Shown here piece after piece: positions 19,553-33,103 of a stretch of DNA of 64,000 nucleotides (positions are counted from its first letter, which is position 1; each line of letters starts with the position of its first letter). The position numbers and the translations under genes were made by a program. The stretch comes from Thermoanaerobaculia bacterium. Lineage in GTDB: Bacteria > Acidobacteriota > Thermoanaerobaculia > Multivoradales > Multivoraceae. Location of the stretch: contig OY762911.1 in assembly GCA_963666565.1 (NCBI GenBank), forward strand, positions 1,152,001-1,216,000. The letters run 5' to 3'. The notes below the pieces were generated by a model. That model did not search any database. It was given only the letters and a program-made list of their open reading frames with translations, and had not been told where the DNA came from.

Positions 19553-20440
19553 ATGAGGTCGTGGTTGCTGATCGTGTCGTTGCTGGTCGCCGCGCCAGCG
19601 TCGGCGGAGGAATCCGGCCGGGGCTTCTACCTGGGCTTCGGCTTGGGCGCGACGCGCGCCGACGCGCTGGACATTCCCGGATGGGGCGTCAACCAGGGGA
19701 CGAGGTGCGACGTCCAGCAGGAAGAGGGGGCGACGGACCCGACCTGCTCCGACGGCACGCCCAGCATCATCGGCGTCACGGCGTTCGACGCCGCGTCGGG
19801 CGACGCCTCGGGGTTGCGCTTCGGCTACGACTTCGGCCGCTACCGGCTGGAGCTCGAGAGCGTGCTCCGCCACGGCGGCGAGCGCTCGGCGGCCCCGCTG
19901 GGCGTGGGGCAGGACGAGGGGCTGGCGAGCAAGGGCTCGGAGTGGAGCGACTCGATGCCGCCGGCGGCGCTGTCGGGCTTCCGCGGGCAGGAGCTGTTCC
20001 TCACGGTCCTGCGCGAGTGGCGTGCCGGGGAGCGCTGGACGCCGTTCGTCGGCGTCGGGGCGGGCTGGTCGCGCATCCGGGCGCGCTACGCGATGACCTT
20101 CATCCGCAAGACGCTGGAGGAGGGCTACCAGGACGTCGAGCCGCCCCTGACGGTGGACGACCGACCGGCGGAGGCGGCGGGGACGGTGAGTGTGTTCGAC
20201 CAGACGTTCCGCGGCGACGTGTTCGGCTGGCAGGTCGTGCTGGGCGCCGAGTACGCGGCGACGGAGCGGACCGCGCTGCGCTTCGGCCTGCGCCGGGCGG
20301 ACTTCCGGGACCTGGCCCGCACGGGAACCTGGGCTTCCGTTCGGAGCAAGACGCCGCCCGGCGACACCGGCGACATGCCGGTCGAGTTCCGCGGCCTGGG
20401 CTACGCGGCGGTGGACGTCGGCCTGACCCATCGCTTCTGA
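19553..20440 (+). CDS. Outer-membrane beta-barrel protein, copy 2
   Basis: Same length (888 nt) and near-identical mature sequence to 7868-8755. Confidence 0.8.
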   Translation: MRSWLLIVSLLVAAPASAEESGRGFYLGFGLGATRADALDIPGWGVNQGTRCDVQQEEGATDPTCSDGTPSIIGVTAFDAASGDASGLRFGYDFGRYRLELESVLRHGGERSAAPLGVGQDEGLASKGSEWSDSMPPAALSGFRGQELFLTVLREWRAGERWTPFVGVGAGWSRIRARYAMTFIRKTLEEGYQDVEPPLTVDDRPAEAAGTVSVFDQTFRGDVFGWQVVLGAEYAATERTALRFGLRRADFRDLARTGTWASVRSKTPPGDTGDMPVEFRGLGYAAVDVGLTHRF

Positions 20441-20447
20441 CCCTCCG

Positions 20448-20590
20448 CTGGGTACGCGGGTCTTCTGACCCGCTTCTGGAGCGAAGCCGCGAAGCGGCGC
20501 AGCGCGGACAGAGGGCCGCCGCCCAGGTGCCGGCGACGATGCTGTCCGCCGCCTTCGGCGGCAAGCGGGTCAGAAGACCCGCGCACCCGG
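20448..20590. repeat. REPIN-like inverted REP doublet (~143 bp)
   Basis: Forward core ctgggtacgcgggtcttctgacccgc ... reverse core gcgggtcagaagacccgcgcacccgg, with internal hairpins. Confidence 0.85.
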
Positions 20591-20622
20591 TGCTGGGTGG
20601 TAGCTTCGCCGACACGTACGGC

Positions 20623-21423
20623 ATGAGCAGCTTCCAGCAGATCGCCGACTTCCGGGCCGAGTGCGACTGCCTCGCCGAGGTCCTGGACCCCCTCGCGGAC
20701 GCCGATTTCGAGCGGGCCACTCTGTTCAAGGGATGGACGCTCCACGACGTCGTCGCCCACCTCCACATCTTCAACTACGCCGCCGACGCCTCGTACCACG
20801 ACCTGGCCGCGTTCGACGGCTTCAGGCAGTTCATGGCCGAACGCCGCGGCCGGCTCAACCTCCGCGAGCTGACCGACGAGTGGTTCGAGGGCAAGCGCAA
20901 CCGCGCCGTCTACGACGTGTGGCGCGCGTACTACCCGCGGATGTGCGACCGGCTGGACGGCGTCGATCCCAGGAAGCGGGTGGAGTGGTTCGGCCCGCCG
21001 ATGAGCGTTCGCAGCTCGGTCACCGCGCGGCAGATGGAGACCTGGGCGCACGGCCAGGAGGTCTTCGACGTGCTCGGCCTCGACCGCGACGAGACGGACC
21101 GGATCAGGAACATCGTCTTCCTCGGGCTGAACACCTTCGGCTGGACTTACGCGGTGCGTGGCCTCGAAGTCCCGGGCGTCGTTCCGGCGCTCGAGCTGAC
21201 GGCGCCGTCCGGCGAGGTCTGGACCTGGAACGAGGACGAGACGGCCAACCGTATCACCGGCGCCGCGGTCGAGTTCGCCCAGGTGGTCACCCAGGTCCGC
21301 AACGTCGCCGACACGTCGCTGGAGATCGTGGGGCCGGTCGCCACCGAGTGGATGAGCATCGCGCAGTGCTTCGCCGGCGGGCCCGAGACGCCGCCGGCGC
21401 CGGGGACGCGACACAAGGCGTAG
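20623..21423 (+). CDS. TIGR03084-type / MDMPI-family (DinB superfamily) metal-binding protein
   Basis: GWTLHDVVAHL, WFGPPMSVRSSVTARQMETWAHGQE, AQCFAGGP. Confidence 0.82.
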   Translation: MSSFQQIADFRAECDCLAEVLDPLADADFERATLFKGWTLHDVVAHLHIFNYAADASYHDLAAFDGFRQFMAERRGRLNLRELTDEWFEGKRNRAVYDVWRAYYPRMCDRLDGVDPRKRVEWFGPPMSVRSSVTARQMETWAHGQEVFDVLGLDRDETDRIRNIVFLGLNTFGWTYAVRGLEVPGVVPALELTAPSGEVWTWNEDETANRITGAAVEFAQVVTQVRNVADTSLEIVGPVATEWMSIAQCFAGGPETPPAPGTRHKA

Positions 21424-21441
21424 CCAGCGGAGGCCGTCGGT

Positions 21442-21459
21442 CGCTGCTAGACTCCCGCG
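21442..21459 (+). promoter_or_regulatory. Extended -10 (TGCTAGACT) plus discriminator of the tRNA-Gln promoter
   Basis: cgctgctagactcccgcg, matches the tRNA-Ser upstream element. Confidence 0.6.
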
Positions 21460-21473
21460 CTTGCCGCTACCGC

Positions 21474-21547
21474 TGGGAGGTCGTCTAACGGTAGGACATG
21501 CGGCTCTGGACCGTAGAATCGGGGTTCGAATCCCTGCCTCCCAGCCA
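21474..21547 (+). tRNA. tRNA-Gln (CTG)
   Basis: TGGGAGG/CCTCCCA acceptor, anticodon loop CT-CTG-GA, GGTTCGAATCC, CCA end; 74 nt. Confidence 0.97.
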
Positions 21548-21609
21548 CTTCGTCCCGCGGGTGCCGGACGCGCGTCCCCCCGTCGATTCAGACCCCGGAG
21601 CGTCGGCGT

Positions 21610-23388
21610 TCAGGGCAGCGCGAAGACGAACAGGTTGTTGCCCGAACTGGGCCGCAGCTCCGGCGTGAGGCCGGAGAGGAGCGCCGCCGACCGGCTGCCG
21701 GTGCTGGCGGCGACGTACTGCCGTCCGTCCACCGCGTAGGTGATCGGGAAGCCGGTCACCGGCGAGCCGAGGTTGATCTCCCAGAGGCCCTCGCCGGTCT
21801 CGTCGTCGAGTGCGCGGAACCGGCCGTTGCCGTCGCCGACGAAGACCAGGCCGCCGCCGGTGACGAACAGCGACATGAGGCCGGCCCGCTGCTCGTAGGT
21901 CCAGAGCGACTTGCCCGTTTCGGCGGACACGGCGTGGATGGATCCGCTCAGGTCGGTGCCGGGCGCGATCTGGTGCTCGGCGTCCAGGGCGTAGATCGGG
22001 AGCCGGCCGGCGCGGGTCGCCGTCATCAGGGCGCAGGAGTTGCGCATCGGCACGTACATCGCGTTCGTCAGCGGGCTGTAGGCGCCCGCCTGCCAGTCCT
22101 TGCCGCCGATGTAGGTGGGGCAGACGTAAGCCTCCTGGCCGAGTTCCCGGAACACCACTTCCGAGTTCTCGGTGACCGCGCCGGTGGCGCCGTCGATCGT
22201 GCTGATCACGTTCTGCCGGATCGTGGGCCGTGCCCAGAGGAACTCGCCGGTCTCGCGGTCCAGCGTGTAGACGACGCCCGTCTTGCCGGGAACGCCGGTC
22301 ACCACCTTGCGCGTCTCGCCCGGTTCGAGGCGCGGATTGATCCAGGCGACTTCGCCGGCGTCGGGGGCCACCGCGGTATCGACCAGGAGCCGCTCGAAGG
22401 GGTGGTCGAGGTCCCAGTGGTCGTTCAGATGCTGGTAGTGCCAGGCGATCTCGCCGCTGTTCGCGTCCAGCGCGAGCGTGGAGTTGTGGTAGAGGTGCCG
22501 CAGTTCCCTGCCGCCGAGCAGGAACTTCGGCGCAGGCGAGGTCACCGAAGTGCCGATGTAGATGAGTTCCAACGCCGGGTCGTAGCTCGGCACCATCCAG
22601 GTGCCGACGTGGGTCCGGTCCTCGAACGGCGTGTCGCCCCAGGTTTCGTCGCCGGGCTCGCCGGGCGCCGGAATCGTGCGGGTTCGCCAGAGCTCGGCGC
22701 CGGTCTCCGCGTCGTGGGCGACGATGACGCAGGCGTCCGGGCCGCCGCGCGGCAGGCAGCTTCGGCCCGAGATCACCTTGCCGTCGGCGACGATGGGGCC
22801 GGAGCTCTGCATCGCCGGGTGGGTCTTGTAGTCGAGGATCATCGTCTCCCAGACCAGCTCGCCGGTCGCGGCGTCCAGGGCGAAGACGAACTCGTCGACG
22901 CTGGTGTCGATGATCAGGCCGCCGTGGATGGCGATGTTCCGGTTGTTGGCGGCGAGCCCGCCGACCTGCTGGAGGATGTTCTCCGGGTGCTCGCGCCGGT
23001 ATTCCCAGATGAGGTCTCCGGTCACGGCGTCGATGGCCTGGATGACGTCGATGGGGTTCGGCATGTACAACACGCCGTCGTAGGCGAGCGGAGTGCCCTG
23101 CTGGCGGCCCTCGCTCAGGCCGCGGGACCAGACCAGCCGCAGATTGCCGACGTTCTCGGCCGTGACCTGGTCGAGCGGGCTGTAGCCCCAGCCGTCGAGC
23201 GTGCGGCGCCACATCAGCCAGTCGCCGTCGCTCGGATCCTGGAGCATGGCGTCCGTGACGGGGACGATGTCGCGGCGGTCCGGCGTGGGCGCCTGCGTCG
23301 GCTGGGCTTCGGCGACCCGAGCGTTCGGGGCCGCGATGAGAATGGTGGCGAGTAATGCCGCCCGCCGGAAGAGATCGCGTTGAGTCAC
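21610..23388 (-). CDS. PQQ-binding beta-propeller dehydrogenase (divergent alcohol dehydrogenase type)
   Basis: Signal peptide; YSPLDQVT, repeated ALDA.TGE..W docking motifs, ITYAVDGRQYVA. Confidence 0.88.
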   Translation of the reverse strand: MTQRDLFRRAALLATILIAAPNARVAEAQPTQAPTPDRRDIVPVTDAMLQDPSDGDWLMWRRTLDGWGYSPLDQVTAENVGNLRLVWSRGLSEGRQQGTPLAYDGVLYMPNPIDVIQAIDAVTGDLIWEYRREHPENILQQVGGLAANNRNIAIHGGLIIDTSVDEFVFALDAATGELVWETMILDYKTHPAMQSSGPIVADGKVISGRSCLPRGGPDACVIVAHDAETGAELWRTRTIPAPGEPGDETWGDTPFEDRTHVGTWMVPSYDPALELIYIGTSVTSPAPKFLLGGRELRHLYHNSTLALDANSGEIAWHYQHLNDHWDLDHPFERLLVDTAVAPDAGEVAWINPRLEPGETRKVVTGVPGKTGVVYTLDRETGEFLWARPTIRQNVISTIDGATGAVTENSEVVFRELGQEAYVCPTYIGGKDWQAGAYSPLTNAMYVPMRNSCALMTATRAGRLPIYALDAEHQIAPGTDLSGSIHAVSAETGKSLWTYEQRAGLMSLFVTGGGLVFVGDGNGRFRALDDETGEGLWEINLGSPVTGFPITYAVDGRQYVAASTGSRSAALLSGLTPELRPSSGNNLFVFALP

Positions 23389-23420
23389 GGAAGGCGCGAC
23401 TCTAGCGCGACGGTGCCGGA

Positions 23421-23565
23421 CTGGGTGCGCGGGTCTTCCGACCCGCCTTCGGGCGAAGCCGCGGAGCGGCGCAGCCCGAGAACCGAATCAGCCGCCGGCC
23501 CGAGGCCGGCGACGTTCTGTTTGGCCGCCTGCGGCGGCAGCGGCTCAGAAGACCCGCGCACCCAG
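23421..23565. repeat. REPIN-like inverted REP doublet
   Basis: Same architecture as 20448-20590. Confidence 0.85.
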
Positions 23566-23587
23566 CGGAAGGGCCGCCTTCGCCGCG

Positions 23588-24724
23588 CTAGGGAGGCGCC
23601 GAGAGCCGCACCTCCGCCTCGGTCTCCTCTTCGCCGCGCAGCAGGGTGACGGTCACGGTGTCCCCCGGCTGCTGCCGCTCGAGCACCGCGCGGATGTCGG
23701 GCACCGACCGGACCGGCTGACCCTCGATCGCGACGATCACGTCGCCGAGGACGAAGTTGCCGCGCCGCGCTTCGCGAATGCCCCGGAGCCCGGCGCGGTC
23801 CGCGCCCGAGTTCCGAACGACGTCCCAGACGACCACGCCGTCGACCGGCGGCCGTACCCGCGTGCCTTCGACGAGGCTGACCCCGAGTTGCGGGCGGTTC
23901 ACCTGCCCGTGGGCGATCAGCTCCGGAACGACCCAGTTCACGGTGTCCACCGGGATGGCGAAGCCGATGCCGGCCCAGGCGCCGCCGGACGCGACGATCT
24001 GCGTGTTGACGCCGATCAACCGGCCGCTCGAGTCGAGGAGCGGCCCCCCGGAGTTGCCGGGGTTGATCGCGGCGTCCGTCTGAATGACGCCCTCCAGTTC
24101 CCGGCCCGTGATCGACTGCACTTCCCGGTCGAGGGCGCTGATCACGCCGGTCGTCAGGGTGTAGTCGAGGCCGAAGGGGTTGCCGATCGCCAGCACCGAC
24201 TGGCCGACCTGCAGGTCGTTCGACGACCCGACGGGGATCGGCCGCAACTTCTCCGGAGGCGCTTCGATCCGGAGAACGGCGAGGTCCATGTCCGGGTCGG
24301 TGCCCACCAGGGAAGCCGGCCAGGTCGTCTGGTCGTGGAGGGTGACCTCGGCGGCCTGGGCGTTCTGGATGACGTGGAAGTTCGTGACGATGTGGCCCCT
24401 GTCGTCCCACAGGAAGCCGCTGCCGGTGCCGTCCTGAACGCGGTCGATGCGCCGTCCCAGGAAGCTGACGCGCCGTTCGCGCAGGGTCGTGATGTAGACG
24501 ACCGACGGCTGGGTCTCGCGGAAGAGATTGACCGTGGCGCGCTCCTCGGGGAGGAGCCCCGAACTCGGGGTAACCGGCCGCGGCTCGCCCTGACTCTCCG
24601 CCTGGAGCACGTTGCCCTGCCAGCGCGAGCCCACCAGGAAGGCGAGCCCGGCGAGCACGAGGAGGCCCGCCGCCGTGGCGATCCGCGGCCGTTCGGTGGG
24701 GCCGCGTTGGACTCCGTCGGGCAT
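23588..24724 (-). CDS. HtrA/DegP-family serine protease with one PDZ domain
   Basis: TNFHVI, DLAVL, IGNPFG, TDAAINPGNSGGPL, C-terminal PDZ; N-terminal TM. Confidence 0.93.
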   Translation of the reverse strand: MPDGVQRGPTERPRIATAAGLLVLAGLAFLVGSRWQGNVLQAESQGEPRPVTPSSGLLPEERATVNLFRETQPSVVYITTLRERRVSFLGRRIDRVQDGTGSGFLWDDRGHIVTNFHVIQNAQAAEVTLHDQTTWPASLVGTDPDMDLAVLRIEAPPEKLRPIPVGSSNDLQVGQSVLAIGNPFGLDYTLTTGVISALDREVQSITGRELEGVIQTDAAINPGNSGGPLLDSSGRLIGVNTQIVASGGAWAGIGFAIPVDTVNWVVPELIAHGQVNRPQLGVSLVEGTRVRPPVDGVVVWDVVRNSGADRAGLRGIREARRGNFVLGDVIVAIEGQPVRSVPDIRAVLERQQPGDTVTVTLLRGEEETEAEVRLSAPP

Positions 24725-24773
24725 CGGCCAAAACTAACAGGCGGTTGAGCGGGTTTGTTCCAGCGTGGGTCGG

Positions 24774-24914
24774 CTGGGTGCGCGGGTCTTCCGACCCGCC
24801 CAGGCCAGCGCCGCGGAGCGGCGGAGGCCGCAGAACAAGGCCGCCGGCCAAAGGCCGGCGACGATGCTGGACGCCGCCTGCGGCGGCAGCGGGTCGGAAG
24901 ACCCGCGCACCCAG
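24774..24914. repeat. REPIN-like inverted REP doublet
   Basis: ctgggtgcgcgggtcttccgacccgc ... gcgggtcggaagacccgcgcacccag. Confidence 0.85.
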
Positions 24915-24968
24915 TCTGGAACGCCGACCGTGGAGCGCTGGCGCCCAGCAAGTCACCGACGGTACACA

Positions 24969-25023
24969 CCGGGTGTGCCGGCGTCCCCGCCGGCTTCCGA
25001 AGAGAACGCGCCGCGAAGCGGCG
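24969..25023 (+). repeat. Variant REP (GGGTGYGCCGGCGTCCCCGCCGGC type)
   Basis: Same 5' GGGTG foot, different palindrome; second copy at 48532. Confidence 0.7.
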
Positions 25024-25050
25024 ACCATCCCGGCGGCGTAGACTCCGCGC

Positions 25051-26154
25051 ATGATCCTCACAGGCAAGACAGTCTCCAGGACCGACTTCGAGGCCGGCAC
25101 CGGCTGGCAACTCAAACCGGAGGGCGCCTGCAAGGGCACGGCGTGCATCCCGCTGTTCGGCCGCGCGCCGGCGTCGTCGGGCGAGGTCGACGCGCTGTCC
25201 CTCGCCGAGGCAATCGGCCTGCCGGTCGCGCACGACCCTAAGCACGGCGTCTGGGCCTTGGGCCCGGAGTCGATCGGTTCGCGGGCGCTCGTGTCCGCCG
25301 AGGACGCCGACTTCGAACTGCCGGATCTGGACGGAAAGCCGTTTCGACTGTCCAGTCTGCGCGGGCGGAAGGTCGTCGTCTACGCCTGGGCGCCCTACTG
25401 AGGCTGCTCGGCCCACCTGCCCGGGTGGCAGGCGTTGCGCGACGAGCTTCATCCGCGGGGGTTCGAACTGGTCACGGTCGGTCTCGACACGCTGGGGGCC
25501 GAAGGCTGCCGCCGCTTCATCGAGGCCGCGAAGCCGAAGCACCCTTCGCTGGTCGACGAGCGCCACCTGCTGGCGCGGCTCTTCGGCGTCGTCAACATCC
25601 CCAGTTCGGTGTGGATCGACGAAGCGGGCACGATCGTCCGGCCCGCCGAGGCCGCGCCGGCGCCGCCCGCCGGCGGCGGTCCGAGCTTGAGAACCGGTTC
25701 GGGGATTCCGGGCCGTTTCGGAGAGATGCTGGAGGAGGCGGCGAAGATCCCGGCCGACACGGACGACTACCACCGGGCGCTGCGCAACTGGGTCCAGAAG
25801 GGTGCCGCGAGCCGGTTCGCGCTCTCGCCGGAGGAAGTCGTCGAGCGGTCGCGCCCGCGCAACGCCGACGTGTCGCTCGGCCACGCCCACTTCGAGCTCG
25901 CCTCGCACCTGGAGAGGGAAGGCCATCACGAAGCCGCGGTCCGCCATTTCCGCGAGGCGCACCGGCTGGTGCCCGAGAGCTGGAGCTTCCGCCGCCAAGC
26001 CTGGTCGCTCGAAGGCGGCGCCGAGGGACCGCTCGCACGCTTCTGGCAGGGGCCGAGCGAGGACGATCCCGAGGCGTGGCCCTACGAAGGCGACTGGCTG
26101 AGCGACATCCGCGCCGAGGGCCCGGAGAACTACGCGGAGCGCTTCGAACCGTAG
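25051..26154 (+). CDS. Redoxin/ResA-like selenoprotein (WAPY-U-GC), in-frame UGA at 25399-25401
   Basis: ORFs 25051-25401 and 25435-26154 are in the same frame; readthrough gives FELPDLDGKPFRLSSLRGRKVVVYAWAPY-U-GCSAHLPGWQALRDEL, a thioredoxin-fold active site; hairpin follows the UGA. Confidence 0.8.
25416..25432 (+). promoter_or_regulatory. Candidate bacterial SECIS apical hairpin
   Basis: CCTGCC-cgggt-GGCAGG, G-containing loop about 21 nt after the UGA. Confidence 0.6.
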
Positions 26155-26160
26155 TTTCTG

Positions 26161-26229
26161 CTGGATGCGCGGGTCCTCTGACCCGCTGCCGCCGCAGGCG
26201 GCCAGGAACGCCGCCGGCCGAAGGCCGGC
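26161..26229 (+). repeat. REP-like repeat with extra hairpins
   Basis: ctggatgcgcgggtcctctgacccgc-gccgccgcaggcggc-gccggccgaaggccggc. Confidence 0.8.
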
Positions 26230-26243
26230 TCCGGTCTCTGGCA

Positions 26244-26873
26244 CTACCAGAAAGCTGGACGATAGTCCCGCGGATCGAGGCAGTTATCGTAGAGGTCGCG
26301 GTCCAGAACGATCCAGTCCGTCCGGTCGATGCTCTTGCGCGATGTGGCTGTTGAACTGACCGGGTAAGCGCAGGCGATCTTCAGCCAGCGGCCAGCGGTG
26401 CGCGCAATGTCCCGAATCTCGGATGCCACCTCGGCGAGATCCTGGTCCTGGCTGAAGACGATGGCGACATCCAACTCGCCGTTCCGCGCCATTCGGACAA
26501 CGTCGAGTCCGAGGCGGAGGTCGATGCCTTTCTCTCGAGGAACAAGAACCTCCTTGGAGGAGCCGCCGGGCAGACGGATAGCCTCGCGACGGTAGCGCAG
26601 GGGCCGTGAGGTTACGTGGATGCCTGCACGCCTCATGGCCACTAGACGGCGGGACCAGTAGCCATGCCATCGCGGATCATGCCGGCGGCTGGGAACTCCC
26701 GTGTAGAAGCGGACCTGCTGGCTGAACCACCCCCGTCGCGCGGACACTGCCTCGGCAAGCAGCGACGGATCGTAGTTGGGGTGGTAGTGGCCGAACGCAT
26801 CCTTGGCATGGCGGAACAGGTTCTGGCCATCGACGAACGAGACGGCGCGCTTGGTCGGGGGTTCGGGCGGCAT
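26244..26873 (-). CDS. NYN-domain (LabA/DUF88, PIN-like) ribonuclease
   Basis: FVDGQN, VRFYTG, REKGIDLRLGLD, FSQDQDL acidic motifs intact. Confidence 0.88.
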   Translation of the reverse strand: MPPEPPTKRAVSFVDGQNLFRHAKDAFGHYHPNYDPSLLAEAVSARRGWFSQQVRFYTGVPSRRHDPRWHGYWSRRLVAMRRAGIHVTSRPLRYRREAIRLPGGSSKEVLVPREKGIDLRLGLDVVRMARNGELDVAIVFSQDQDLAEVASEIRDIARTAGRWLKIACAYPVSSTATSRKSIDRTDWIVLDRDLYDNCLDPRDYRPAFW

Positions 26874-26882
26874 TCGATTGTC

Positions 26883-26939
26883 AAAAAAATAACCCTACCG
26901 GGGCCTCGGAAATGAGGCTAGTCCGGTAGGGAGCAAGTG
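26883..26939 (-). ncRNA. Structured leader RNA / intrinsic terminator upstream of the NYN gene
   Basis: Minus strand CCCUACCGG-ACUA-GCCUC-AUUUCC-GAGGC-C-CCGGUAGGG followed by UUAUUUUUUU, between promoter and ATG; 5' end approximate. Confidence 0.65.
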
Positions 26940-26944
26940 ACGGA

Positions 26945-26973
26945 AGGCTAGAGGCCGGCTGGCTACATGTCAA
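26945..26973 (-). promoter_or_regulatory. sigma70-type promoter for the NYN locus
   Basis: TTGACA (26973-26968), 17-nt spacer, TAGCCT (26950-26945). Confidence 0.75.
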
Positions 26974-26979
26974 GGTGTC

Positions 26980-27058
26980 CCGGGTGCAGCGGGTCTTTGG
27001 GCGCTCGCCGCTGCCGCCTCGGGCGGCCAGGAACGCGCCGCTTGGCGAAGCCCGGCGT
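26980..27058 (+). repeat. Degenerate REP-like copy
   Basis: ccgggtgcagcgggtct...gccgcctcgggcggccaggaacgcgccg resembles 26161-26229. Confidence 0.55.
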
Positions 27059-27083
27059 CCTTCCCCGGCTACGATTCGCGCCG

Positions 27084-28745
27084 ATGCGCCTCAGCGACGC
27101 CGACGCTCGCCTCGCGGCAGCCCTGGAGGAACGCCGCCGGCAGTGGCGTGAAATCGACGGCACGGCTCGAGTCTGGTCCCGCGACGGCTCGCTCTGGACC
27201 GATTCCGGGGAGGAGGAGTGGCTCGGCTGGCTCGATGTCGAACGCCTGGGCTGGCTGACCCTCCTTGACGCCGACGGCAGGCGCGTCGATACGGAGGCCG
27301 CCAAGCTCGCCCGGCATCTCTCGGGTCCGCCGTTCGAGCGCTGCCTGCTGCTCGGCATGGGCGGTTCGGCCCTCGGCGCCGACCTCCTCTGGCGCTCGCT
27401 GCCGCGGCGGGCCAGCGCCGACTTCATCGTCCTCGACACGACGGACCCGCGCGAGATCGCCGCCGCGGTCGACGGAGTGGACCCGGCGGCGCTGCGGGTC
27501 GTCGCGGCGTCGAAGTCGGGCGGGACGCTGGAGACGCGGCTGGCGTTCGAGTTGCTGCTCGACCGGCTGGACGATGCGGCGCCCGCGGCCGCGCTGGCGA
27601 TCACCGACCCCGGGTCGGCCCTGGAGGCGCGAGCGAGGTCCGCCGGCGTGCCGGTCGCGTTCGGCCGTCCGGACATCGGCGGCCGGTTCTCCGTGCTCTC
27701 CGCCTTCGGCCTGGTGCCGGCGGCGGTCGCCGGAACAGATCCCGAACCCCTGCTGGCGAGCGCGGCGTCGATGGCCGCGGCGTGCCGCCTCGACGCCGGT
27801 GCAGGCGCTGATACCGACGTCGACGCCGGCGCCAGCGAGGCGCCCGCCAATCCCGGCGTCGAACTGGGCCTGCTGCTCGCCGCGGCGCACGACTGCGGCC
27901 GCGACAAGCTGTACCTCCACGCGCCGGACGGTTGCGCGACGATGGTCGCCTGGGTGGAGCAGCTACTCGCCGAGTCCCTTGGCAAGGGCGACGTGCTGCT
28001 GCTGCCGGTCGCGGCGGCCGGTTTGTCTGAGGCGCCGGGGCCCGATCGACTCGACATCGTGCTGGGAAGCGGCGCTAGTACCGGTGTGCCCGCGGGCGCG
28101 CCACTGGCGCACATCGAAGCAGACCTCCCGGCCGATCTCGGCGGCGAGTTCTTTCGCTGGCAGTTCGCCACGTCGGTGGCCGGCGCGTTGCTCGGTGTCA
28201 ACCCGTTCGACCAGCCGGACGTGGAGTCATCCAAGGTCGTCACGCGGCGGTACGTCGAGCGGATGAAGGCCGGCGATGCACCGCCGCCGGGCGGCGTGGT
28301 GCGGCTGAGCGAAGTCAGCGCGCTCGGCCTCGCCGAACTCCTGGGCACGCACCTGGCGACGCTCCCGGAGCGCGGCTACGCCGTCGTGTCGGCCTACCTG
28401 GACCGCAGCCGGCGCAACCGCGAGTTGCTGGAGACCCTGCGTCGGCGCATCGCCGGCGCGACGGGCGGCGCGTCCGTGCTCGGCTTCGGGCCCAGCTTCC
28501 TGCACTCGACCGGCCAAGCCCACAAGGGCGGACCGAACCGGGGGCTCTTCCTCCAGATCACGGCCGATCCGCCGGCCGCCGACGTCGCGGTTCCCGGCGA
28601 AGACCTGACTCTCGGAAAGGTCCAGCTCGCCCAGGCCTGGGGCGACTACGAGGTGCTGGCGGAACGTGGCCGGCGGATCCTCGCCATCCATATCGACGGC
28701 GACGTGGAGGCGGGGCTCCGGCGGTTGACCGAGGCCATCGCCTAG
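27084..28745 (+). CDS. pgi: Glucose-6-phosphate isomerase (resembles the PGI half of Tal-Pgi fusions)
   Basis: GMGGSALG, ASKSGGTLET, IGGRFSVLS, GVNPFDQPDVESSK, HSTGQAHKGGP. Confidence 0.82.
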   Translation: MRLSDADARLAAALEERRRQWREIDGTARVWSRDGSLWTDSGEEEWLGWLDVERLGWLTLLDADGRRVDTEAAKLARHLSGPPFERCLLLGMGGSALGADLLWRSLPRRASADFIVLDTTDPREIAAAVDGVDPAALRVVAASKSGGTLETRLAFELLLDRLDDAAPAAALAITDPGSALEARARSAGVPVAFGRPDIGGRFSVLSAFGLVPAAVAGTDPEPLLASAASMAAACRLDAGAGADTDVDAGASEAPANPGVELGLLLAAAHDCGRDKLYLHAPDGCATMVAWVEQLLAESLGKGDVLLLPVAAAGLSEAPGPDRLDIVLGSGASTGVPAGAPLAHIEADLPADLGGEFFRWQFATSVAGALLGVNPFDQPDVESSKVVTRRYVERMKAGDAPPPGGVVRLSEVSALGLAELLGTHLATLPERGYAVVSAYLDRSRRNRELLETLRRRIAGATGGASVLGFGPSFLHSTGQAHKGGPNRGLFLQITADPPAADVAVPGEDLTLGKVQLAQAWGDYEVLAERGRRILAIHIDGDVEAGLRRLTEAIA

Positions 28746-28756
28746 CGAGGCAGAAA

Positions 28757-28801
28757 CCGGGTGCGCGGGTCTTCCGACCCGCATCCGGCGCGAAGCGCCG
28801 G
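28757..28801 (+). repeat. REP-like repeat
   Basis: ccgggtgcgcgggtcttccgacccgc plus ccggcgcgaagcgccgg hairpin. Confidence 0.85.
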
Positions 28802-28863
28802 TTTCTGGACCTTCTGCCGCGCCGGGCCGAGGGGCGCTCTCCCGGCGCGAGTCGCCCCTGGCG

Positions 28864-29148
28864 CTACCGGCGGCCGCGCCGCCGGCCCCGCCCTCCAGCC
28901 GGCTTGCCCGTCAACTCGTCGAGGCCGACGTTGAACTCGGCCACGATGCGGATCAGCACGTCGAGGCTTACCCGCAGTTCGTCGCGCTCGATGCGCGAGA
29001 GATCCGACGCCGGGATGCCGACCCGCTCCGCCAGCGCCGGCTGCGTCAGCTTGTTCTTCCGTCGCAGGCGCCGGATCCGGTGGCCCATGAGCTGGACCTG
29101 CCGGACGGGGGCTTGCTGCGCTGGAGCTTCCTGGTTCATCGCCGTCAT
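28864..29148 (-). CDS. XRE-family helix-turn-helix regulator
   Basis: GHRIRRLRRKNKLTQPALAERVGIPASDLSRIER; start 29148 or 29139. Confidence 0.85.
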   Translation of the reverse strand: MTAMNQEAPAQQAPVRQVQLMGHRIRRLRRKNKLTQPALAERVGIPASDLSRIERDELRVSLDVLIRIVAEFNVGLDELTGKPAGGRGRRRGRR

Positions 29149-29191
29149 CGCCCGAGAGACGGGCAATCCTAGCGGCGCAGGCCACATCGGT

Positions 29192-29315
29192 GCCGGCCTT
29201 CGGCCGGCGCGTCCTTTCGGCCGCCTTCGGCGGTAGCGGATCAGAGGACCCGCGCACCCGGCGCGTCCTTTCGGCCGGCTTCGGCGGCAGCGGGTCGGAG
29301 GACCCGCGCACCCAG
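29192..29315 (-). repeat. Tandem pair of reverse REP copies
   Basis: Two ~54-bp direct units ending gacccgcgcaccc. Confidence 0.85.
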
Positions 29316-29322
29316 CGGCCGA

Positions 29323-30054
29323 TCAGACCGACGTGCGGAGATTCTCGTTGGCGGTGATCGTCGCTCCGCTCGCTTTGTAGCGCTCCCGGCGCTCCTTGCT
29401 GAAGCTGTCGACCTCGTCCTTCGGCACGCCGTAGGCCACTCCCCTGTCCACGCCGGGGCGCGCGCGAACGCGCTTCATCCAGTCCACGACGGCGGGCTGG
29501 GTCGTGATGTCGACCTTGGCCCACTTGTACGCCCGGATCCACGGGAACGCGGCGATGTCGGCAACGGTGAAGTCGTCCCCGCAGATGTAGGGGTGCTTCT
29601 CGAACCGGCGGCCGAGAATCGCCACCAGCCGGAGCGACTCCCTCCCGAACCGTTCCAGCGGGTGCGCCTTCTCCTCGTCGGGCACGTCGATGTAGCGCGT
29701 GTAGCTCACCATGTTGCCGAACGCCGGTCCCAGGTTGGCGGCCTGCCAGTAGAGCCACGGGAGCACGTTCCAGCGCCGCTCGTCCGTCGGCAAGAGCGAA
29801 GTCGGGTACCTCTCCCCGAGGTACTGCAGGATGGCGCAGCTCTCCATGACGGCGCGGCCGTCGTCCACCAGGGCCGGTTGCTTCTGGTTCGGGTTGACGG
29901 CGGTGAACTCGGGCGTGAACTGCTCGCCGGCCGAGAGGTCGACCATGTGGATGCGCGTCTCGGGCAGTTCGACTCCCGCTTCGCGTAGCTCCTCCAGCAT
30001 GATCGAGATCTTCCAGCCGTTGGGCGTCGCGCCCATGTAGACGTCAAGAGCCAT
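29323..30054 (-). CDS. Glutathione S-transferase (YfcG/YghU-like)
   Basis: TPNGWKISIMLEEL, NPNQKQPAL, ESCAILQYL, TVADIA. Confidence 0.92.
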   Translation of the reverse strand: MALDVYMGATPNGWKISIMLEELREAGVELPETRIHMVDLSAGEQFTPEFTAVNPNQKQPALVDDGRAVMESCAILQYLGERYPTSLLPTDERRWNVLPWLYWQAANLGPAFGNMVSYTRYIDVPDEEKAHPLERFGRESLRLVAILGRRFEKHPYICGDDFTVADIAAFPWIRAYKWAKVDITTQPAVVDWMKRVRARPGVDRGVAYGVPKDEVDSFSKERRERYKASGATITANENLRTSV

Positions 30055-30074
30055 GCCGCGTTTCCTCCTCCTCG

Positions 30075-30177
30075 ATGCCGGCGACGATCATCGGCGGTCC
30101 GATGACGTTGGCCTTGCCGTCGTCCAGGGTGACGAGCGCCACGTCGCCGACCTGTTAGTAGTGGTCCGTTCCGTCAT
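30075..30177 (-). pseudogene. 5' relic of a crotonase/enoyl-CoA hydratase gene
   Basis: ATG ACG GAA CGG, then a frameshift and TAA, then QVGDVALVTLDDGKANVIGPPMI, a typical crotonase N-terminus; truncated at the GST RBS. Confidence 0.55.
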
Positions 30178-30215
30178 GAGCCTCGGTTCCTTCGTCGTTT
30201 CGCTCGATTGGGTGC

Positions 30216-31412
30216 TCAGATCGTGCGCCCGACGATCCACGCGCCGGCGACGAAGGTAGCCAGCACGCTGCCCAGGTTGCACAGGACGACGACCAGGAGG
30301 ATGCGGGTGAGGCGATTGCTCCAGAAGCCGCGGACGGAACCGAGGCTGTCGGCGAGGTTCTCCATGTCCGCAACCAGGGGCTTCCGGAGCAGAGCCTGGA
30401 TGAGGCCCGCGACCCAGCCGGCCGCCATCAACGGGTTCAGGCTGGTCAGGGGCGCGGCGGCGAAGGCGGTGAGGATCGTGACCGGATGGGCGAGGGCGAT
30501 GGCGGCGCCGAGGGCGGCGAGGCCGCCGTTCAGCGCGACCCAGATGTACACCGATTCGACGGTGCGCTCCCGGTCGCCCCAGACGAGACCGTAGGCGAAG
30601 AGGGCGACGATGAGGATCGGCGCCAGCCAGGCGACGACGCGCGGCCACACGGGCGGGTCCGGCACCTGTTCGAGTTCCTTGAGGTTGCACGAGGAGTCGG
30701 CGAGGCCGGAGATGCCCGGCAGGTGCCCGGCGCCGACCACGGCGACCGTCCGCGGGCCGGCGGACTGGCGCAGCTTCTCGGCCATGTAGGCGTCGCGCTC
30801 GTCGATCAGCGTGCCCTTGACGGTGGGCAGCGCCTCGGCCAGGGCGCTCATCAGGTCGCTCAGGTTGCCGCTGTCGCGCAGCTTCTCGATGTCCTCTTCG
30901 TCGAGGTCGTCGCCGACGAAGACGCTGCCGGTCAACTGGGTCATCACCTTCATCCGCTGCCAGAAGCCGAGCGACGACCAGGTCCGCTTGAGCGAGATCT
31001 GGATGTCGCGGTCGATCAGCTCCAGCCGGGCGCCGCGGTCCCTCGCCTGGGCGATGGCCGCCCGCATCTCGGCGCCGGGTTCGATGCCGAAGCGCTGCGC
31101 GATGCGGCGCTGGAAGGAGTGCATGAGGAAGGAGCTCAGCAGGAGCGCCGCCTTGCCCTCGCGCAGGACCTGGAAGATGTCGAGATTGCGCCAGGACTCC
31201 TGGTTCTCCAGGTTCTGGTAGCGCGCCTCGCAGAGCTCGACGCAGACGGTGTCGGGCTCGACCGCTTCGATCGTCTCGTTCGTGTCGCGGACGCTCTGGG
31301 GCGAGACGTGGGCGGTGCCGACCAGGAAGACCTCGCGGTCGTCGAGGGCGATCTGCCGCACGGAGGCGGGCAGGTCTGGACGCGGCGGCTGGCTCGCGGT
31401 TTCGACGGTCAT
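30216..31412 (-). CDS. TraB/GumN-family protein (pheromone-shutdown TraB type)
   Basis: LVGTAHVS, VCVELC, PGAEM, DRDI, LIDERDAYM, VGAGHLPGI; C-terminal TMs. Confidence 0.92.
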   Translation of the reverse strand: MTVETASQPPRPDLPASVRQIALDDREVFLVGTAHVSPQSVRDTNETIEAVEPDTVCVELCEARYQNLENQESWRNLDIFQVLREGKAALLLSSFLMHSFQRRIAQRFGIEPGAEMRAAIAQARDRGARLELIDRDIQISLKRTWSSLGFWQRMKVMTQLTGSVFVGDDLDEEDIEKLRDSGNLSDLMSALAEALPTVKGTLIDERDAYMAEKLRQSAGPRTVAVVGAGHLPGISGLADSSCNLKELEQVPDPPVWPRVVAWLAPILIVALFAYGLVWGDRERTVESVYIWVALNGGLAALGAAIALAHPVTILTAFAAAPLTSLNPLMAAGWVAGLIQALLRKPLVADMENLADSLGSVRGFWSNRLTRILLVVVLCNLGSVLATFVAGAWIVGRTI

Positions 31413-31474
31413 GGCAGCGCGGAAGCGTAGCCCACGCGGCAGCCGTTAGGGACGGCCTTCGGTACGCTCTCGGC

Positions 31475-33103
31475 GTGCGCGGTGGATGGAGGCAAGGCGG
31501 GAGATGGTCGCAGGTCTGGAACGGTAGCCTCCTGGCCGCCTTCGGCGGCAGCGGGTCAGAGGACCCGCGCACCCGGCGGAACGGTGGCCGCGCTCGGCGC
31601 CGTCCGCGAACCGGGCGGAACGTTCGTCGCCGGCCACTCGCGGCCCTGGCGGCGGCCGCGGCGTTCGCACTGGCCTGCGGAGCGCCCGACCCCGGACCGC
31701 CGAACGTCGTCCTGATCCTCGCGGACGATCTGGGCTACGGCGACGTCGGCGTCTACGGCAGCGAGATCATCTCGACGCCGCACATCGACGCGCTGGCGGC
31801 GAGCGGCGTGCTCTTCACCGCCGGCTACGTCAGCCACCCGGTGTGCAGCCCGTCGCGGGCCGGCCTGATCACCGGCCGCTACCAGCAGCGCCACGGCTGG
31901 GAGTTCAACCCGGCAGGCCGCGACGTGGCGGCCGGCATGAGCGTCGACGAGACGACGATCGCCGACCGGATGAAGGCGCTCGGCTACCGCACCGGCATGG
32001 TCGGCAAGTGGCATCTGGGCCACCAGGAAGAGCACCACCCGATGAGCCGCGGCTTCGACGAGTACTTCGGCGTGCTCGAAGGCGCCAGCCTCTTCGTCGA
32101 CTCCAGCCTGCCCGGCGTCGAGTACGGCTCGCTTCGCGGCGAGGAAGGGCCGACCGAGCGCCGCAACAAGGTGCTGCGCGGCTTCGAGGAGGAGAAGATC
32201 GAGCGTTACCTGACCGACGTGTTCACCGACGAGGCGACGGGCTTCATCGAGCGAAGCGCCGGCGGCGACGAGCCGTTCTTCCTCTTCCTGAGTCACACGA
32301 CGCCGCACACGCCGCTCCAGGCGACGGCCGAGTACCTCGACGGCCACCGCCACATCGAGGATCCGCGCACCCGGGTCTACGCGGCGATGGTCGCCTCGCT
32401 CGACGAGAGCGTGCGCCGCGTGGTCGAGACGCTCAAGGCGCAGGGCGTGTACGAGAACACGCTGATCGCCTTCGCCAGCGACAACGGCTGCGCCGGCTAC
32501 ATCGGCCACGCCTGCTCGAACGGCCCTCTGTTCGGCTTCAAGCGCTACCACCACGAGGGCGGCGTGCGCGTCCCCTTCATCATGAGCTGGCCGCGCCGGA
32601 TCGAGGGCGGCCGGACGATGGCCGATCCGGTGATCACCCTTGACTACGCGGCCACGTTCACGGCCGCCGCCGGCGAAGAGGCCGACACCGGCGACAGCGT
32701 GAACCTGCTGCCCTGGATGACGGGCGAGGCGGACGGCGCGCCGCACGAGTACCTCTACTGGCGGGCCGGCGCGACCCTCGCGATCCGGGACGCGCGGCAC
32801 AAGCTGATCAAGCTGAACCGCACCGACTTCCGCCCCGACAACCTGCGCGCCGACGGCCGTCTGCAGCCGCCGGAGGGCGGCTGGCCGACCGACTCGCCGC
32901 ACGGCCAGCTCACCCTGCTGTACGACCTCGACGCGGATGTTGGCGAGATGCACAATCTGGCCGCGGAGCAGCCGGAGATCGTCGCTCGTCTGGAAGCGGA
33001 GCTGGACGACTGGCGGGCCACCCTGGCGACCGAGCAGATCCTGCCCGGCGTCCGGTCCACTCTCGCCGAGATCGATGGAGAGTGGGTGCAGTTGGTATTC
33101 TGA
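31475..33103 (+). CDS. Arylsulfatase-family sulfatase (probable lipoprotein); start uncertain
   Basis: PNVVLILADDLGYGD, formylglycine motif CSPSRAGL, GKWHLG, SDNG; lipobox-like ALAC. Confidence 0.88.
   Translation: MRGGWRQGGRWSQVWNGSLLAAFGGSGSEDPRTRRNGGRARRRPRTGRNVRRRPLAALAAAAAFALACGAPDPGPPNVVLILADDLGYGDVGVYGSEIISTPHIDALAASGVLFTAGYVSHPVCSPSRAGLITGRYQQRHGWEFNPAGRDVAAGMSVDETTIADRMKALGYRTGMVGKWHLGHQEEHHPMSRGFDEYFGVLEGASLFVDSSLPGVEYGSLRGEEGPTERRNKVLRGFEEEKIERYLTDVFTDEATGFIERSAGGDEPFFLFLSHTTPHTPLQATAEYLDGHRHIEDPRTRVYAAMVASLDESVRRVVETLKAQGVYENTLIAFASDNGCAGYIGHACSNGPLFGFKRYHHEGGVRVPFIMSWPRRIEGGRTMADPVITLDYAATFTAAAGEEADTGDSVNLLPWMTGEADGAPHEYLYWRAGATLAIRDARHKLIKLNRTDFRPDNLRADGRLQPPEGGWPTDSPHGQLTLLYDLDADVGEMHNLAAEQPEIVARLEAELDDWRATLATEQILPGVRSTLAEIDGEWVQLVF
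31532..31576 (-). repeat. REP-like repeat, within the predicted sulfatase 5' region
   Basis: ctggccgccttcggcggcagcgggtcagaggacccgcgcacccgg. Confidence 0.85.

Follow-up and report, generated by a model that had tools for sequence, protein, structure and literature searches.

A conserved leader hairpin before mobile NYN nuclease genes as a candidate type III-like RNA-antitoxin module

The toxin folds known to be controlled by an RNA antitoxin are few, ToxN-like proteins, AvcD and AbiF being given in the part of the survey cited here, in which tandem repeats before the terminator serve as a criterion of type III toxin-antitoxin (TA) loci (PMC12283969). AbiF turned out to be a Cas13 ancestor. Its leader RNA RCd22 was reported to terminate transcription in cis and to neutralise the toxin in trans (10.1101/2025.04.15.648962, also PMC12373285). 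Among NYN proteins the one relative tested is HEC-09. A construct in which an added inducible promoter preceded the gene and its putative promoter region did not protect against the phages used, according to the section of the report drawn on here (10.1101/2024.01.29.577857), where neither an RNA nor a toxicity test is mentioned; the result counts against a simple defence role. The wider family NYN.COG1432 is listed as of unknown function in the portion of the source cited, with neither an RNA partner nor a toxin role given there (PMC5499597).

The stretch of DNA analysed, called the window below, comprises 64,000 nucleotides of a Thermoanaerobaculia bacterium. Its minus strand carries a cassette of about 730 bp, which as read from the sequence is composed of a promoter, a conserved hairpin followed by a U-rich tail, and an NYN gene whose predicted active site is intact, without a protein partner. 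The features of the cassette and of its surroundings are the following:

26968..26973, minus strand: -35 box TTGACA, upstream edge of the cassette
26945..26950, minus strand: -10 box TAGCCT, weak (3/6 of the consensus), with a 17-nt spacer from the -35 box
26883..26938, minus strand: predicted leader RNA of about 55 nt, with a putative +1 A at 26938 and the U-tract as its 3' end
26893..26931, minus strand: leader hairpin, with a 9-bp outer stem, a 4x1 internal loop, an inner stem and a variable apical loop
26883..26892, minus strand: U-rich tail UUAUUUUUUU, putative tail of a leaky intrinsic terminator, its third letter a conserved A
26244..26873, minus strand: NYN gene, 209 aa, ATG at 26873
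26157..26232, plus strand: REP-like repeat, left copy, a host repeat outside the family-wide cassette
26979..27049, plus strand: REP-like repeat, degenerate right copy, in direct orientation
25051..26154, plus strand: gene of a WAxxUGC ResA-like selenoprotein, flanking, outside the system
27084..28745, plus strand: phosphoglucose-isomerase-like gene, flanking, outside the system; start approximate; Pfam PGI E = 5e-8

The arrangement resembles that of AbiF (RF03085), as far as the latter is described in the parts of the sources cited above, in its one promoter, its structured leader ending at an intrinsic terminator, the read-through to a single nuclease gene and the lack of a protein antitoxin. 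The AbiF toxin belongs to the Abi_2/AbiD/F family, linked to Cas13, whereas a PIN-fold NYN is found here, and RCd22 is described there as two motifs and a separate terminator within about 100-130 nt, whereas in the window one hairpin of 55 nt apparently does both. Membership of the AbiF family was rejected, the leader giving no match to RF03085 and the protein no Abi_2/AbiD/F Pfam domain. With ToxIN, CptIN and TenpIN the cassette shares the order promoter, RNA, terminator and RNase and the patchy horizontal spread, but in the window clade neither tandem pseudoknot repeats nor a separate terminator are apparent, the array of locus L033 excepted; these families were also rejected, the toxin fold (NYN) being unrelated and the window having one hairpin. 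An earlier note on this DNA had proposed a ToxIN-type layout, of which the gene order stands, but no pseudoknot is apparent in the fold, the RNA unit is usually single and the hairpin is itself the apparent terminator. In the alignments examined, the covariation of the leader is accounted for by nested stems. The broad type III layout, that is, a shared promoter, an RNA, a terminator and a nuclease without a protein antitoxin, can be read from the sequence, and AbiF appears to be a closer analogue than ToxIN. VapBC is likewise a PIN-like RNase in a small, mobile and often decayed module; membership was rejected for lack of VapB or any other conserved protein partner among the 180 of 292 predicted flanking ORFs scanned, and in view of the protein being an NYN and not of the VapC subgroup. 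The cassette is most likely a new type III-like RNA-antitoxin module, and is presented here as a candidate.

The elements of the cassette as previously described were all recovered. The sigma70-type promoter TTGACA-17-TAGCCT lies on the minus strand with the spacing claimed for it; a strict consensus promoter scan of the window did not call it (-10 box 3/6), and the pattern TTGAC..TAnnnT occurs once in the window and 76 times in the genome. The A at 26938, the probable start, stands 7 nt past the -10 box (6 nt between) and 7 nt before the stem. RNAfold returned the same hairpin as had been drawn by inspection, in which 26931-26923 pair with 26901-26893 on a near-invariant CCC/GGG base, followed by an ACUA/C internal loop, a 5-bp inner stem and an AUUUCC apical loop, with an energy of -25.4 kcal/mol (z = -5.3; 0/200 shuffles as good). 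The opposite strand also folds strongly (z = -6.4), so that the strand cannot be called by folding energy alone and is settled by the covariation. The A7 run, said to be the sole such run noticed in this GC-rich window, is indeed its only A/T homopolymer of at least 6 and one of four runs of at least 7 in the 4.79-Mb genome. Between the tail UUAUUUUUUU and the NYN ATG 9 nt were counted, against about 10 in the earlier note. The leader motif is present in one copy in the window genome, for which reason its interpretation as a REP element was rejected.

The NYN gene is intact, as had been supposed: its ORF of 209 aa has PF01936 (NYN) as its only Pfam match (33 bits, cut-off 24.2; E = 1e-7). The predicted acidic active site D15, E114, D118, D143 and D145 is complete in the window protein, and 129-130 of 130 intact homologues have the same residues. 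The AlphaFold2 model (pLDDT 96.9) was matched best by 2qip (VPA0982; Z 16.2, rmsd 3.2, 158 residues aligned) and by the MARF1 NYN domain 5yaa (Z 13.4, rmsd 3.1, 145 aligned), both of them NYN domains, the next rows following at Z 8.5. A PDB sequence search with the single window protein gave no match, and a profile search recovered 2qip at E = 0.003. By its sequence the protein is classed as a PIN-like NYN of the LabA/COG1432 type, for which ribonuclease activity is predicted from fold and active site. It has the fold and the acidic active site in common with LabA-DUF88/NYN.COG1432 (PF01936, VPA0982, PDB 2qip), from which the window clade differs by the addition of a basic beta-hairpin (residues 93-113, with a conserved R-Y-R) and of the leader. 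NCBIfam gave no match for the protein, the ESM Atlas only unnamed NYN clusters, and the annotated phages no match; viral contigs gave none by single protein or DNA pattern and 13 with an alignment query. In one relative (P0126) the clade NYN is fused to a C-terminal GNAT acetyltransferase domain.

No match to the leader was found in Rfam for the window, 12 homologue loci or six distant loci. A seed of 38 genome loci was assembled by protein search alone, and the leader was visible by eye in most of them. In the alignment of 34 leaders 95.8% of the cells were paired and 7 of 12 pairs had changed on both sides. The covariance model R1, built from this alignment, matches 36 of the 38 seed loci, all 11 new clade loci from a sample of 301 genomes of the phylum (one weakly, E = 0.03) and the region upstream of NYN in 91 of 93 metagenome and viral loci; the metagenome scan had confirmed 543 relatives, of which the best 80 were used. 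In a pool of 157 loci there are 131 intact NYN genes, 130 of them with upstream DNA, and the leader precedes every one of these 130, which include 28 training loci. The association holds at protein identities down to 40%, and the clade spans at least 10 phyla as judged from titled records. It is nevertheless rare, with 15/301 genomes in the phylum of the window (one a distant match) and 3/401 in another phylum. A cultured carrier, Methylobacterium bullatum (NZ_LR743510), has a gene of 54% identity with a divergent leader.

In an independent set of 87 distinct rows, unused for model building, 92.8% of the cells were paired (outer helix 99.5%) and 8/12 pairs had changed on both sides, with 0/500 shuffles as high and no slide near, the alignment being fitted to the model, which favours the pairing score. 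On a tree of 119 proteins made with FastTree, pairs 5, 8 and 9 change 13, 15 and 6 times, and their left and right sides change together (12/12, 12/11 and 5/5). The hairpin for which the earlier note had suggested a search upstream of NYN homologues is conserved there, and its covariation holds outside the training loci. The type of internal loop follows the protein tree, on which it changes 10 times where shuffled labels change 27 times on average, a match which was rejected as evidence of co-evolution because kin share labels. A widespread structured RNA, absent from Rfam and tied to one NYN clade, is on these comparisons judged to be real.

The details were counted in 146 distinct leaders, after 3 mis-registered and 10 duplicate or edge rows had been dropped and L204 skipped. 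The outer stem contains 119 G-U and 1 A-C cells of 1314, and the apical loop is a GNRA in 121/146 leaders; on account of this wobble and of the loops the fold was assigned to the mRNA strand. TTGAC is found 38-46 nt before the stem in 82/146 leaders as against 38/5941 control windows, a TAnnnT-like box at the spacing of the window is visible in many homologues, and the A 7 nt before the stem, kept in 95% of the leaders, fits a transcription start. The first three pairs of the outer stem are almost invariably C-G. Of the internal loops 86 are of the 4x2 and 41 of the 4x1 type (127/146 together); the loop begins with A in 95%, and C precedes the 3' arm in 96%; the 5' flank and the UUAUU tail are conserved as well. 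A 3-bp inner stem was present in 140/146 leaders when parsed directly, and the inner helix is only 72-86% paired in the alignments because loops of both types, 4x1 and 4x2, are aligned together there. The apex is free to vary and tolerates long insertions (L029, L165). The tail opens with TTAT in 118/146 leaders and has 5-7 T among its first 8 nt in 139/146; it often falls short of a perfect run (at most 5 T in 8 nt in 35/146), so that some members may have little of the free small RNA. From the end of the stem to the start codon the median distance is 21 nt, and an SD-like word occurs in 50/107 leader-to-ATG spacers, so that the missing SD remarked upon in the window does not hold as a general feature.

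The GC-rich stem, the GNRA loops and the U-rich tail are ordinary traits of a terminator, and in L014 and L226 the leader now heads a different ORF. These observations would suit a plain attenuator, that is, a constitutive leaky terminator which lowers the expression of the nuclease without any recognition of RNA by protein. Such a device has no need of a fixed internal loop, an invariant CCC/GGG base or the A in the tail, and it would not be expected to remain bound to one protein clade over 10 phyla, or to lead, when searched for by the RNA first, to NYN or what is left of it with few exceptions. We consider the attenuator improbable; it had been put forward as the simple alternative in the earlier note, and the conservation of unpaired positions and of the asymmetric loop argues against it. 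The leader appears to conserve more than a terminator needs, and its fixed unpaired letters together with the free apex resemble a putative protein-binding site. One match of the model (L082, E = 0.004) was discounted because it was judged to be an ordinary terminator.

The surroundings of the cassette point to movement between sites. The selenoprotein gene and the PGI-like gene are adjacent without an intervening gene in 14/24 genomes of the same genus, as read from coordinates. Genomes G005 and G013 have one REP copy where the window genome has two around the cassette, and another (G019) carries an 86%-identical cassette at a different site. The GC3 of the cassette gene is 0.76, as against 0.89 in the flanking genes. 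Contigs from three runs contain the cassette in one piece, and a close strain in two of those runs (X1, X4) has 744 other letters in the slot (window 26155-27010). The homology between loci spans the -35 box to the stop codon, and no shared sequence was found upstream of the -35 box among the homologue loci. The two REP copies which the earlier note saw as framing the unit are real, but they are specific to the window genome and the homologues share no flanks. The REP 41-mer has 337 genome copies at up to 8 mismatches; the REP-like family is abundant (window 20440-31580 and genome-wide), often as inverted pairs between genes. The neighbouring selenoprotein has an in-frame TGA at 25399-25401 and, when this is read as Sec, scores 486 bits on NF041054 (WAxxUGC_long; cut-off 300), a known family.

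No recurring protein partner was detected among 180 of 292 predicted flanking ORFs scanned, which bears out the claim that a protein antitoxin is not adjacent, no protein neighbour being conserved across loci. By hand count, 15/70 non-viral loci lie beside or inside restriction-modification (R-M) operons, TA genes, integrases or a relaxase, and the other 55/70 have housekeeping or unassigned neighbours, the figure of 15/70 standing without a background rate. The R-M insertions take the form hsdM-NYN-hsdS in L101 and L105 and mod-NYN-res in L029, and six related viral loci are found among terminase, portal and capsid genes. In L195-L201 the cassette is located within phage- or GTA-like head-packaging operons (terminase, portal, DUF6127, capsid). 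Taken together, the sequences indicate that the cassette moves between sites, is patchy and is short-lived. When cassette ends were compared, no conserved ends, inverted repeats or downstream terminator were found.

Two further explanations of the hairpin were considered. It could be an element acting at the DNA level, a recombination or end site by which the cassette is moved, as the many unrelated sites without a transposase, the stacked leader copies (L068, L119, L155, G101, G136) and the close strain with 744 other letters in the same slot might suggest. The fixed distance to the promoter and the +1 A, the GNRA loops, the strand-specific wobble (119 vs 1) and the lack of a conserved right end or inverted repeats make this scarcely credible. 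Alternatively, the RNA could be an activating cofactor, forming an active RNP with NYN, or a sensor of a phage protein, an antiterminator or a ligand, by which read-through is brought about; the conserved unpaired nucleotides would accord with this, as would the cassettes inserted within R-M operons or between a terminase and a portal gene, sites at which transcripts from outside would run on into them. Within 55 nt, however, no alternative fold or expression platform is seen, and a variable guide-like segment is missing except for the apical loop; the cofactor or sensor is regarded as very improbable.

The explanation which we hold to be probable, with moderate confidence, is that of a mobile RNA-nuclease module of AbiF-like design, in which a type III-like RNA antitoxin doubles as terminator and the toxin is a PIN-fold NYN. 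Most transcripts would end at the U-tail, releasing an abundant RNA of about 55 nt, and a minority would read through and allow NYN to be made. The nuclease would recognise the CCC/GGG base of the stem, the conserved single-stranded flanks and the asymmetric loop, and the excess of small RNA would sequester it. As the read-through mRNA has the same site about 21 nt before the start codon, free NYN may in addition repress its own message. It is tempting to speculate that when host transcription stops, by phage, stress or loss of the element, the RNA is the first to decay and so sets the nuclease free, and that the freed NYN might then act in abortive infection or addiction. The RNA-antitoxin reading is favoured because the leader is conserved at 130/130 genes, covaries and keeps more than a terminator needs, because the tandem modules of L033 have the array layout of type III antitoxins, because HEC-09 loci show a module with a separate terminator and decay seems to be toxin-first, and because of the missing protein partner, the 15/70 defence or mobile contexts and the precedent of AbiF.

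Conservation and covariation of the leader would fit equally well a protein-binding site that acts in cis only. The NYN protein would then bind or cut the hairpin of its own 5' UTR and so block translation or destroy the mRNA; the terminated RNA would be a by-product and the enzyme perhaps mildly harmful. Autoregulatory leaders of RNase genes are well known, as in rne, rnc and pnp, and this precedent is joined by the single RNA unit of nearly all loci, by the end of the stem at a median of 21 nt ahead of the start codon, where a ribosome could reach it, and by the occurrence of the motif once per cassette and, here, once per genome. The conserved promoter-proximal terminator tail speaks against cis-only autoregulation, as do the tandem modules of L033 and the module with a separate terminator in sister clades, and patchy, mobile, often broken cassettes suit a selfish or defensive role better than housekeeping. 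Purely cis-acting autoregulation is accordingly rated as unlikely, though it is a serious competitor of the RNA-antitoxin reading.

The array in L033 consists of three tandem RNA modules behind one promoter, with a U-tail after the last only. Such an array was met in this one locus out of about 160, and an insertion interrupts the NYN gene there. Upstream of the array (L033:2454-2670) there are two inverted matches to Acido-Lenti-1 (RF01687), which resemble REP-type repeats. Stacked leader copies occur in L068, L119, L155 and G136, and stacked decayed cassettes in G101.

The decay of the cassettes was followed in 42 genomes of the genus, in which 7/7 intact clade genes have the leader. A search by the RNA first gave 14 strong non-self matches in the genus: 6 with an intact NYN, 1 running off the contig, 1 truncated and 6 without NYN directly behind, and in four of the latter the ORF is deleted at a site where a sister retains it. 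In 151 genomes of the phylum, 10 non-self RNA matches comprised 5 intact NYN genes, 4 remnants and 1 with nothing. Promoter and RNA are thus kept with NYN lost or shredded in 6/14 genus and 5/10 phylum matches. The decay looks toxin-first, as would be expected of a protein that does harm in the absence of its RNA. The evidence is weak, because the ORF presents a target about ten times larger than the leader, loss of the leader usually removes the promoter, and some breaks may be assembly errors. Other rearrangements were noted: an ORF of 125 aa without a Pfam match lies between the leader and an intact NYN in L014 (2563-2937), an in-frame internal deletion joins the start and the end of NYN in L220 (46 aa), and in L226 a second leader precedes a YhcG-type gene fused to an NYN-like start.

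More distant NYN genes also have structured leaders, which are not matched by model R1. Many of them belong to HEC-09 (PADLOC PDLC04163), which is a sister family, likewise a stand-alone NYN of about 200 aa, embedded in defence operons according to the part of the source cited above, and its genes too are preceded by structured leaders. The difference is that these are other RNAs and that true members score about 300 bits on the model PDLC04163 (299-317 for L234 and L238), as against 25 for the window protein, whose membership was rejected on this score; a gene of the window clade in G350 is also absent from the HEC-09 matches at E <= 1e-25. In the 18 HEC-09-like loci obtained from 401 genomes, a terminator-like hairpin lies within 110 nt of the start in 8/18, as against 9/720 random windows; near heuristically called starts of neighbour genes it was seen in 4/248. 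Five loci (L257, L262, L259, L231, L263) show a promoter, a CCC..GGG module, a separate terminator and NYN in this order. At the six strongest HEC-09 loci no such terminator is seen, the structured leader there being a different one. As shared by the strongest members (L248-L253), it has two hairpins and a C-run about 60-140 nt before the start, and the C-run could pair with a G-run downstream (pseudoknot or three-way junction). An alignment of the sister-clade leaders was tried and was uninformative, and at four loci of a further NYN clade no structured leader was seen.

It is conceivable, and we put it forward tentatively as slightly short of an even chance, that the mobile NYN/COG1432 nucleases as a whole form an unrecognised class of RNA-antitoxin systems, in which the 55-nt hairpin of the window clade combines the roles of terminator, antitoxin and operator, and the sister clades (HEC-09 and the NYN genes of small enterobacterial plasmids) use related or other modules with a separate terminator. 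If the RNA-antitoxin reading is true, a PIN-fold nuclease under a 55-nt RNA would be a new fold for such toxins and a very compact design, a first function would be provided for part of a large bacterial family listed as of unknown function, and HEC-09 would be worth re-testing with its leader in mind. Even under cis-only autoregulation, a widespread structured RNA outside Rfam with an obvious protein partner would have been added. The literature on NYN, DUF88 and LabA, mainly open-access, was searched for RNA antitoxins, leaders and toxicity, and no description of the NYN-RNA pair was found in it, although supplementary tables of RNA-motif surveys or of the HEC preprint might list the motif.

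Related modules on small E. coli plasmids offer a directly testable system, WP_000257472.1 being one such plasmid NYN. An HEC-09-like NYN occurs on ColE1-like plasmids from E. coli, Salmonella and Klebsiella (L063:2560-2790, L207:860-1100, L208:900-1142), preceded, as seen by eye, by a multi-hairpin region of about 170 nt and a perfect terminator. Apparent compensatory changes were observed in this region among the three plasmid records, and 20 plasmid records match it, 17 of them over the NYN gene. A distant NYN clade with CxxC pairs, present in the genus of the window (L094, L096 and L097, from G049, G048 and G042), has a promoter-like box, a structured module of about 45 nt and a separate terminator upstream. 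Finally, divergent single hairpins with a CCCC/GGGG base and a U-rich tail, missed by the model, stand before distant NYN genes in L113 and L064.
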